Source of the DNA: Promethearchaeota archaeon
GTDB lineage: Archaea > Asgardarchaeota > Thorarchaeia > Thorarchaeales > Thorarchaeaceae
Assembly: GCA_027031765.1 (NCBI GenBank)
Contig: JALVPN010000040.1
Span: forward strand, 113,265-145,264
DNA: 32,000 nucleotides
Reading direction: 5' to 3'
Below the pieces are notes generated by a model. It was not told where the DNA came from. It saw only the letters and a program-made list of their open reading frames with translations, and did no database searches. Position 1 is the first letter of the stretch; each line of letters starts with the position of its first letter. A program made the translations under genes and the position numbers. Shown in pieces: positions 25,038-25,624 of this stretch.

Positions 25038-25044
25038 CTTTTAT

Positions 25045-25575
25045 TGATTCACAACATTAATTGCACACCCATAAATTAAGTGTGAGTGTGTGAACAACCA
25101 GTATCTGCGTATGTGGCGTGTATTACGTGGTTGCCCTGTTTCGGAGGAAAGACATCTCTAGCACCCAGTTATACACAGTATAGTGCGGTTCCGTCCGCAT
25201 ACGGCATTATCCACAGTGTTAGCCAACGATTCCAGCCTCCTTCCAACCCGTCGCAGTTTCACACTGTTATGACCTCTGTGAACATGGAACCCACAAAGCA
25301 TTGCTCTCCTAACCGTGTTCCACTGGAAACAGGGGGGTAGTTCGATTCACAAACACTTACAGCCGTATGAGTCCTGCACTGTGGCAAACGGGACTCCATA
25401 TCCTCACGAACTGCCGGGTGTTCACATAGAAGGCGCCAAACGGGCTGCAGTTCTGTGAATGCCTGTAACTGGGGTGAATGCTGTTGATTGTCAGTTGGAC
25501 TGCCAAATGTTCACATCGAAGGCGTGTCTTGGCACTCAATAGGGGCAAAGCCGCGCTCGGGGCCTGTGTATCACA
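25045..25575. repeat. Dispersed array of TTCACA / TTATNCACA motifs
   Basis: TTCACA on either strand at 25048, 25089, 25258, 25277, 25346, 25421, 25454, 25510; TTATACACA 25169; TTATCCACA 25207; TATCACA 25569. Confidence 0.7.
25317..25338 (+). promoter_or_regulatory. Origin recognition box (ORB)
   Basis: GTTCCACTGGAAACAGGGGGGT; fits the same consensus GTTCCACWSGAAACARDGGGGT as the two boxes at 20.7-20.9 kb. Confidence 0.75.
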
Positions 25576-25624
25576 CCACACCTTGTCATATGGTCTTGCA
25601 AGCTTGCAGCGACACGAGCTGGGT

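Follow-up and report, generated by a model that had tools for sequence, protein, structure and literature searches.

Results

The ORB3 locus and its array of short boxes

We analysed a 32,000-nucleotide stretch of DNA from a Promethearchaeota archaeon of the class Thorarchaeia (NCBI GenBank assembly GCA_027031765.1, contig JALVPN010000040.1; G000:C40:113265-145264 in our notation). This whole stretch is called the window below, and coordinates given without a contig name are those of the window. The assembly comprises 2.95 Mb in 229 contigs, with a GC content of 59% and a completeness of 95%. Our subject is a 587-bp intergenic gap (25038-25624) in which a full origin recognition box (ORB), here named ORB3, lies amid an array of short boxes with the core hexamer TTCACA. 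The gene for a winged-helix protein, P0001, has its 5' end at one edge of the gap, and a SufS-like gene on the minus strand (25625-26887) has its 3' end at the other. The elements of the locus are as follows.

24405-25037, minus strand: P0001, a winged-helix protein of 210 aa, candidate binder of the TTCACA boxes
25048-25053, plus strand: box A, TTCACA, between the putative TATA box and the P0001 start codon, near the expected transcription start, in invariant alignment columns
25071-25079, minus strand: putative P0001 TATA box TTAATTTAT, assigned from the sequence, some 45-50 nt ahead of the start codon and aligned with the conserved CTTATTTG of relatives
25077-25094, minus strand: boxes B'/B, TAAGTGTGAGTGTGTGAA on the plus strand, TTCACA-CA-CTCACA-CTTA in the direction of the gene, at the position of the transcription factor B recognition element (BRE)
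25258-25282: boxes C/D, everted pair TTCACA-N13-TGTGAA, with the 13-nt spacing identical in 22 of 22 genomes (aligned block ATTCAC-N13-GTGAAT)
25317-25338, plus strand: ORB3, full ORB GTTCCACTGGAAACAGGGGGGT, its dyad TTCCACTGGAA toward P0001 and its G-string pointing away
25346-25351, plus strand: box E, TTCACA, 7 nt past the end of ORB3, at a position fixed in the family
25421-25459: distal cluster, with box F (25421-25426), the palindrome GGCGCC (25432-25437), the box-G position and box H, TGTGAA (25454-25459)
25474-25479: degenerate box I, GTGAAT, after box H
25499-25524, plus strand: duplicated 26-nt box-F unit, 85% identical to 25410-25435, 89 bp downstream of it and holding the eighth TTCACA (25510-25515)

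ORB3 is built like both ORBs of a first locus 4.4 kb away, namely as a dyad TTCCA-N3-GGAAA followed at a fixed distance by the G-string. A search of the assembly with the pattern TTCCA-N3-GAAA-N3-6-GGGG returned exactly three full ORBs, at 20743-20764 (minus strand), 20881-20902 (plus strand) and 25317-25338 (plus strand), so that the full ORB which an earlier note on this DNA had read at the last of these positions is indeed present. Outside these three, the perfect ORB dyad occurs only in two mini-ORBs ahead of the orc1-1 gene on contig C190.

The eight hexamers (TTCACA or TGTGAA) in the gap start at 25048, 25089, 25258, 25277, 25346, 25421, 25454 and 25510, five on the plus strand and three on the minus strand. 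The genome holds 1358 copies on both strands, from which 0.27 would be expected in 587 bp (Poisson P of at least eight, about 5e-10); the count of eight against roughly 0.3 expected, given in the earlier note, is thus borne out. No other 600-bp window of the 2.95-Mb genome contains five or more copies. The cluster is likewise unique in the 400 kb scanned of a genome from a second genus (G009), where it has 10 boxes against four in the next best window. No everted pair with the 13-nt spacing of boxes C/D occurs elsewhere in the genome studied here, and close TTCACA pairs of any kind number 14, about the level of chance, which gives no sign of a wider regulon. Among these 14 is an inverted pair, TGTGAA-N14-TTCACA, at the start of hypF (15755-15780), which is probably a chance occurrence.

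Conservation of motifs and spacing in Thorarchaeia

Our main comparison set consisted of 22 Thorarchaeial genomes, from which the regions upstream of the P0001 orthologues were aligned (alignment A2). Upstream of each of the 22 orthologues are 7-10 hexamers and, some 300-330 bp from the start, an ORB whose orientation is always the same. The counterpart of ORB3 is found by pattern in 21 of these genomes, and the remaining one (G013) carries the diverged copy TTCCAGTGGAAGTGACGGGGT. The 173 sites give the box consensus yATTCACA, with A at position -1 in 77% of them.

The distances between the boxes are almost constant across the family: 22-23 nt from A to B, 162 nt from B to C (161 in one genome), 13 nt from C to D, 34-35 nt from D to the ORB and 70-71 nt from E to F. 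The sequences that fill these distances are not conserved in the 22 genomes. By contrast, the distance between the two ORBs of the first locus ranges from 135 to 141 nt within the same family. When the gap was compared with 40 relatives by blastn, only the ORB was aligned, in one genome; the conservation lies in the motifs and their spacing. The B'/B block ATAAGTGTGAGTATGTGAAT is nearly invariant in the alignment. The distal cluster has the family consensus aTTCACAAnnAnGGCGCCATTCACA for boxes F and G, followed by N9 and TGTGAA (box H). Box G is missing from the genome studied here, which has GGCGCCAAACGGG in place of GGCGCCATTCACA; the duplicate of box F is specific to this genome and absent from the aligned relatives.

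Two further elements that had been noticed in the gap did not withstand this comparison.

25169-25177 and 25207-25215, plus strand: 9-mers TTATACACA and TTATCCACA, resembling DnaA boxes, in this genome only
25134-25150, minus strand: degenerate inverted ORB, in this genome only

The two 9-mers exist as described, and they are unusual in that the pattern TTATNCACA has only 12 copies in the genome, two of them here 38 bp apart. They are absent from the corresponding alignment columns in 21 relatives. Since a family box preceded by T (TTATTCACA) already fits the TTATNCACA pattern, the 9-mers are best read, on the sequence comparison, as one-mismatch variants of the yATTCACA box or as chance. The genome (95% complete) has no match to DnaA domain IV (PF08299), whereas the positive controls in 10 bacteria did match, and we therefore reject a link to DnaA. 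To our knowledge, archaea in general do not possess DnaA. The degenerate inverted dyad, which had been taken for a possible partner of ORB3, has no ORB-like match at its place in the same 21 relatives and is judged a chance resemblance.

P0001, the candidate binder of the boxes

The probable true start of P0001 is a TTG at 25028, giving a protein of 207 aa, the same length as the database copy P0002. Its AlphaFold model, with a mean predicted local distance difference test (pLDDT) score of 76, has a duplicated beta-beta-alpha module at the N-terminus (residues 12-92), which a disordered acidic linker joins to a winged helix-turn-helix (116-183); a long helix follows at the C-terminus. Residues 110-210 match small PadR-type regulators at the level of the fold only, with Z-scores of 8.2-9.1 and root mean square deviations of 3.4-4, the best being 5zhc (Z 9.1 over residues 110-209), and a large number of PadR structures score 8 or higher. 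The protein belongs to no Pfam or NCBIfam family, the PadR model included, and Pfam searches up to E of 10 returned only noise. A Foldseek search gave only generic winged-helix matches with E above 1e-3; the C-terminal domain of Cdt1 is one among many of these (E 0.012). No Pfam match to Rep, Cdt1 or WhiP-type families was obtained, and the model shows one winged helix plus the beta-beta-alpha domain; Rep initiators have two winged-helix domains.

Of 24 genomes from the same family, 21 have a single-copy orthologue of P0001, with 64-76% identity. A profile of the winged-helix domain found one match each in 113 of 151 Asgard genomes, and homologues, all annotated as hypothetical, occur in Odin-, Hod-, Frey-, Hermod- and Promethearchaeota and in one member of the Bathyarchaeia. 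The two-module full-length form is restricted to Thorarchaeia, while the homologues elsewhere have 130-180 aa.

Read in the direction of the gene, the P0001 promoter is TTCACA-CA-CTCACA-CTTAATTTAT-(N19)-TGTGAA-(N9)-GGTGA-(N5)-TTG, in which GGTGA resembles a Shine-Dalgarno sequence, TTG is the likely start and box A precedes both. With B/B' at the BRE position and box A close to where transcription is expected to begin, the arrangement would be that of an archaeal promoter under autoregulation, and P0001 would control its own promoter. The TTCACA boxes are most likely bound by this adjacent winged-helix protein, to judge from their constant association.

The array and the gene beyond Thorarchaeia

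A wider set comprised 27 non-Thorarchaeial Asgard loci from at least 12 families and one Bathyarchaeia locus (L115). The winged-helix gene stands beside ORBs in most of the 27, beside orc1-1 in about half and beside orf101, a small gene of the origin region described below, in several. An ORB in the same orientation is often found 300-450 bp upstream of the P0001 homologue, and TTCACA is the top or near-top enriched upstream hexamer in at least 16 of the 27 loci. Whatever the setting of orc1, be it divergent (e.g., L063-L065, L069, L072, L073, L075), in tandem (L066-L068, L071, L074, L077) or absent, the array lies upstream of the winged-helix gene. Its position is thus independent of the arrangement of orc1, which indicates that the boxes follow the winged-helix gene and not orc1. 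The motif TTCACA-N5-GGCGCC, known from the distal cluster, is also present beside orc1 in other Asgard lineages. The Bathyarchaeia locus has orc1 and the P0001 homologue on either side of a single gap, in which six boxes are interspersed with three ORBs and an AT-rich stretch.

The association of the gene with the ORB and the boxes therefore holds for 22 of 22 Thorarchaeial genomes, for most of the other Asgard families sampled and for one Bathyarchaeia locus. The earlier proposal that the boxes are iteron-like sites for a non-Cdc6 protein, probably the neighbouring winged helix-turn-helix protein, agrees with this association as far as the binder is concerned; the term iteron-like is a loose one.

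In two families the boxes themselves deviate. Family f7 (L067, L068, L071) has GTTAACA boxes, in which C3 of TTCACA is replaced by A, and its recognition helix reads S-V-V/I-STYLAR where that of the others reads S-T-x-STYLxR, a change from Thr to Val. Family f5 (L080, L081) has ATGTACA boxes with an unchanged recognition helix and a change from Arg to Ser in the wing. This co-variation of box and protein is suggestive, but consists of only one or two events.

The origin core and its neighbourhood

The first locus and the gene next to it have the following features.

20743-20902: core origin, with an ORB at 20743-20764 (minus strand), a 116-bp spacer of 67% AT and an ORB at 20881-20902 (plus strand), both dyads facing the spacer
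20962-21267, minus strand: orf101, a small conserved origin-linked protein, encoded directly downstream of the P0001 homologue in the sister family

The region containing the ORBs is the chromosomal origin. On contig C40, both cumulative skews, that of GC and that of AT, have their maximum at 125-135 kb, and the ORB loci are at 134-138.9 kb; gene orientation on this contig is mixed and does not explain the skew. In the genome from the second genus (G009, 41% GC), the AT skew is positive over the 200 kb to the left of the locus and negative over the 200 kb to the right, the change of sign falling exactly on the locus. This switch in two genera, together with the position of all three full ORBs of the genome in the region, marks it as the origin.

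The gene order, compared in 14 genomes of the family, is hypF, POR, the core with its two ORBs and AT-rich spacer, orf101, an alanine-dehydrogenase-like gene, a saccharopine dehydrogenase gene, P0001, the ORB with its boxes, and a gene whose 3' end faces the array. The two dehydrogenase genes (21317-24157, plus strand) split orf101 from P0001 in all Thorarchaeial genomes examined. In a genome of the sister family within the same order (G025) both are missing, orf101 and the P0001 homologue are direct neighbours, and the ORB sites are about 1.3 kb apart. The pair of dehydrogenase genes looks like a 2.9-kb insertion into the origin region in Thorarchaeia. In other Asgard lineages, as in the sister family, the winged-helix gene stands, with or without orf101, between two ORB sites at a distance of about 1-1.5 kb from each other. 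On the far side of the array, the SufS-like gene and a nucleotidyltransferase-like gene (25625-27900) are inverted here relative to 13 relatives, and one breakpoint coincides with the right edge of the box array.

The small gene orf101 is linked to the core, in which the two ORBs flank a DNA unwinding element (DUE), in Thorarchaeia and in several other Asgard families. Its model (pLDDT 92) has a ferredoxin-like fold, for which the best matches are weak ones to Cas2 proteins. No Pfam or NCBIfam family was assigned to it, and a sequence-profile search of the PDB gave no meaningful match.

Orc1-1 is encoded on another contig (C190:1416-2663), and in seven relatives its orthologue lies about 60 kb from the array on the same contig. 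Upstream of orc1-1 are a conserved GTAATACGTAnCTTTAT motif and then two or three mini-ORBs, with no TTCACA boxes. This GTAATACGTAnCTTTAT element may explain the TAATAC motif which had earlier been noted in intergenic DNA. A divergent second Orc1/Cdc6 paralogue (G000:C40:159907-161106), 30% identical to Orc1-1, is encoded 22 kb beyond the array on its right side. Its gene is preceded by a tRNA-like sequence and by no ORBs or TTCACA boxes. About 10 kb from the core, an open reading frame (ORF) of 327 aa (10155-11138, plus strand) gave weak matches to AAA_22 and ORC-CDC6-like ATPases (E 1e-5 to 6e-4), below the cut-offs.

Discussion

A probable control module linked to the origin

We hold with moderate confidence, from the arrangement and conservation of its motifs, that the gap is an origin-linked nucleoprotein control module and not an autonomous origin. 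It contains one ORB only, with no conserved inverted partner in 21 relatives. It also lacks a conserved AT-rich unwinding element: apart from the promoter segment between boxes A and B, the maximum of AT content has no conserved position, and the gap as a whole is 50% AT in this genome. The absence of both a DUE and an inverted ORB points to a satellite with a controlling function and not to a second origin.

The module might work as follows. One Orc1-1 monomer is predicted to occupy ORB3, and about eight yATTCACA boxes would be occupied by P0001 through its PadR-like DNA-binding half. Boxes B'/B and A, which bracket the putative TATA box and transcription start, would serve autoregulation of P0001. 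Boxes C/D, E and F-I surround ORB3 over about 430 bp, at distances that vary by no more than 1 bp; they would hold a complex of fixed geometry, with Orc1 and the winged-helix protein able to influence each other. The distal boxes face no promoter in Thorarchaeia and yet are invariant, and such a complex of the box binder with Orc1 would be the simplest account of this. Unwinding would take place in the core of the first locus, between its two ORBs, displaced by 4.4 kb from the module through the 2.9-kb insertion of metabolic genes in Thorarchaeia.

Several observations weigh against this picture. The skew has the polarity, a maximum of cumulative purine excess, that would mark the terminus in most bacteria, so that calling the region an origin rests on the ORBs and on the linkage to orc1 in other lineages. 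The skew windows of 5-10 kb are too coarse for loci 4.4 kb apart, which leaves room for initiation at or near ORB3. The public sequencing runs that contain the stretch include no RNA run, only one hydrothermal-vent metagenome. The co-variation of box and protein comes from one clade, and in family f5 the boxes differ while the recognition helix is that of the TTCACA families, so that the boxes could be bound by a different factor, such as orf101 or the second Orc1 paralogue. Finally, 8-10 sites over 430 bp exceed what simple autoregulation needs, and the promoter role may be a minor one.

A more far-reaching version of this interpretation is offered as a tentative extension, which we regard as rather unlikely. 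According to it, the P0001 family would be an ancient origin-specific partner of Orc1, spanning Asgard archaea and Bathyarchaeia, and the array with its ORB would form a complex of about 430 bp that licenses, times or restrains the firing of the origin.

Other explanations of the array

The explanation that comes next to the control module is a purely transcriptional one, which we find doubtful and nevertheless take seriously. In this case the array would be the operator and promoter of P0001, ancestrally shared with a divergent orc1, and ORB3 would be a site for Orc1 as a transcription factor with no role in replication. Such a function would suit the position of boxes A and B on either side of the putative TATA box and transcription start, the PadR-like character of the DNA-binding half of P0001, and the finding that seven other Asgard loci, like the Bathyarchaeia locus, carry the array where orc1 and the winged-helix gene diverge. 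The mini-ORBs in the promoter of orc1-1 itself in Thorarchaeia also indicate that Orc1 sites are used at promoters. However, orc1 is about 60 kb away in Thorarchaeia and the gene on the right ends at the array, and yet boxes F-I and ORB3, 280-450 bp from the start of P0001, are invariant. Moreover, the module never leaves the neighbourhood of the core.

Some bacterial and archaeal DNA is bound in arrays for purposes of segregation: AspA coats the centromere of pNOB8, and ParB binds parS near bacterial origins. It is improbable, in our estimation, that the gap is a centromere-like or architectural site of this kind, in which the PadR-like protein would coat the array and thereby position or segregate the origin region. 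In favour of it are the one dedicated locus in each genome, whose many sites have a fixed geometry, the constant linkage to the origin and the PadR-like fold with its C-terminal helix. On the other hand, no linked ATPase of the ParA or SegA type was found in the window or at the loci of relatives, no AspA chain is among the fold matches listed for P0001, and the embedded ORB would be left without a role.

It is likewise improbable that the gap is an independent second origin, with Orc1 at ORB3 and the winged-helix protein as co-initiator in the manner of WhiP at Sulfolobus oriC3. The perfect full ORB, the dedicated winged-helix gene next door and a skew switch that does not separate the two loci would all be in line with it. 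They are opposed by the features from which we argued above, the single ORB without a conserved inverted partner and the lack of an AT-rich element other than the promoter, which is the AT-richest stretch. In addition, the module is only 0.3-1.5 kb from a canonical core of two ORBs and a DUE in most lineages, and P0001 has one winged helix and no family match of the Cdt1 or WhiP type. Of the two possibilities raised in the earlier note, a second origin and one half of a bipartite origin, the former thus finds no support in a locus of this composition, while the latter is compatible with the data; in the sister family the ORB loci flank a two-gene cassette of only about 1.3 kb.

Finally, a non-coding RNA gene, a small ORF or an accident of promoter and terminator composition might be suspected from the length of the gap and its fixed internal distances (the 162 nt between B and C equal 54 codons), but is scarcely credible, as no frame is open in more than three of the 22 genomes, RNAalifold finds no consensus structure beyond pairing among the invariant boxes and an energy of 0 for the spacer, Rfam gives no match in the gap at the gathering cut-off or at E up to 1, and the boxes occur in both orientations with an enrichment found nowhere else in the genome.

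Relation to known systems

A satellite ORB has its closest precedent in the Thermococcales, whose own ORB3 and mini-ORBs within dp1, about 1.5 kb from oriC, form a conserved second set of Orc1/Cdc6 sites in one origin region, and this cluster is thought to permit the assembly of a looped or otherwise higher-order complex (Matsunaga et al. 2007, PMC1904270). As there, a second conserved ORB site is split from the core by one or more genes in the locus described here. Unlike the Thermococcales cluster, it is a single full ORB without mini-ORBs, it lies in non-coding DNA and not inside dp1, and it is set amid yATTCACA boxes, which are not ORBs. It is also tied to a winged-helix gene instead of cdc6 or dp1, with orc1 about 60 kb away in Thorarchaeia.

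As for the boxes, the nearest precedent is the ucm motif of Sulfolobus origins, whose binder UBP is a small protein distinct from Orc1 and required for the origin to be active (Dhanaraju et al. 2025, PMC12141716). Both are short non-ORB motifs of origins with a proposed binder of their own. UBP, a saddle-shaped protein of the nucleoid, is abundant, has more than 300 sites in the genome and is encoded by a gene that is not linked to the origin (PMC12141716), whereas the TTCACA boxes cluster at one locus only and their candidate binder is a winged-helix protein encoded alongside. As summarised in the same article, the gene for WhiP adjoins Sulfolobus oriC3, an independent origin element without an adjacent orc1 (PMC12141716). 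The Thorarchaeial locus is similar in that a winged-helix gene stands beside an origin element without orc1. It differs in that P0001 has one PadR-like winged helix and no Cdt1 family match, and in that the locus is without a DUE; WhiP is reportedly Cdt1-like, with two winged helices.

Two clusters of initiator sites flanking a gene are also a feature of the bipartite oriC of Bacillus subtilis, where clusters of DnaA boxes on both sides of dnaA make up one origin (cited in PMC1904270). That is a bacterial DnaA system, unlike the present one, which lacks DnaA domain IV. Nor do the boxes resemble the repeats of iteron replicons, which are tandem direct repeats of 17-22 bp with regular spacing; ours are 6-7 bp long, of mixed orientation and at rigid but uneven spacings of 13-162 nt. 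With the PadR regulators, P0001 shares the winged helix-turn-helix followed by a C-terminal helix in residues 110-210. It departs from them in having no sequence-level match, an additional duplicated beta-beta-alpha N-terminal domain and a dedicated target linked to the origin.

Significance

Asgard archaea are the closest known relatives of eukaryotes, and we found no paper that dissects the anatomy of their replication origins or deals with the protein family of P0001. The locus described here gives a testable anatomy, consisting of a core of two ORBs around a DUE, a satellite ORB and a second motif, unique in the genome, with a likely binder in a family hitherto annotated as hypothetical. 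If P0001 only regulates itself, the array would still be a clean marker of the origin in Asgard metagenome assemblies in which no orc1 is adjacent. If, on the other hand, P0001 does modulate Orc1 or the firing of the origin, it would add an accessory factor to the model of the archaeal replicon, beside UBP and WhiP of Sulfolobus.

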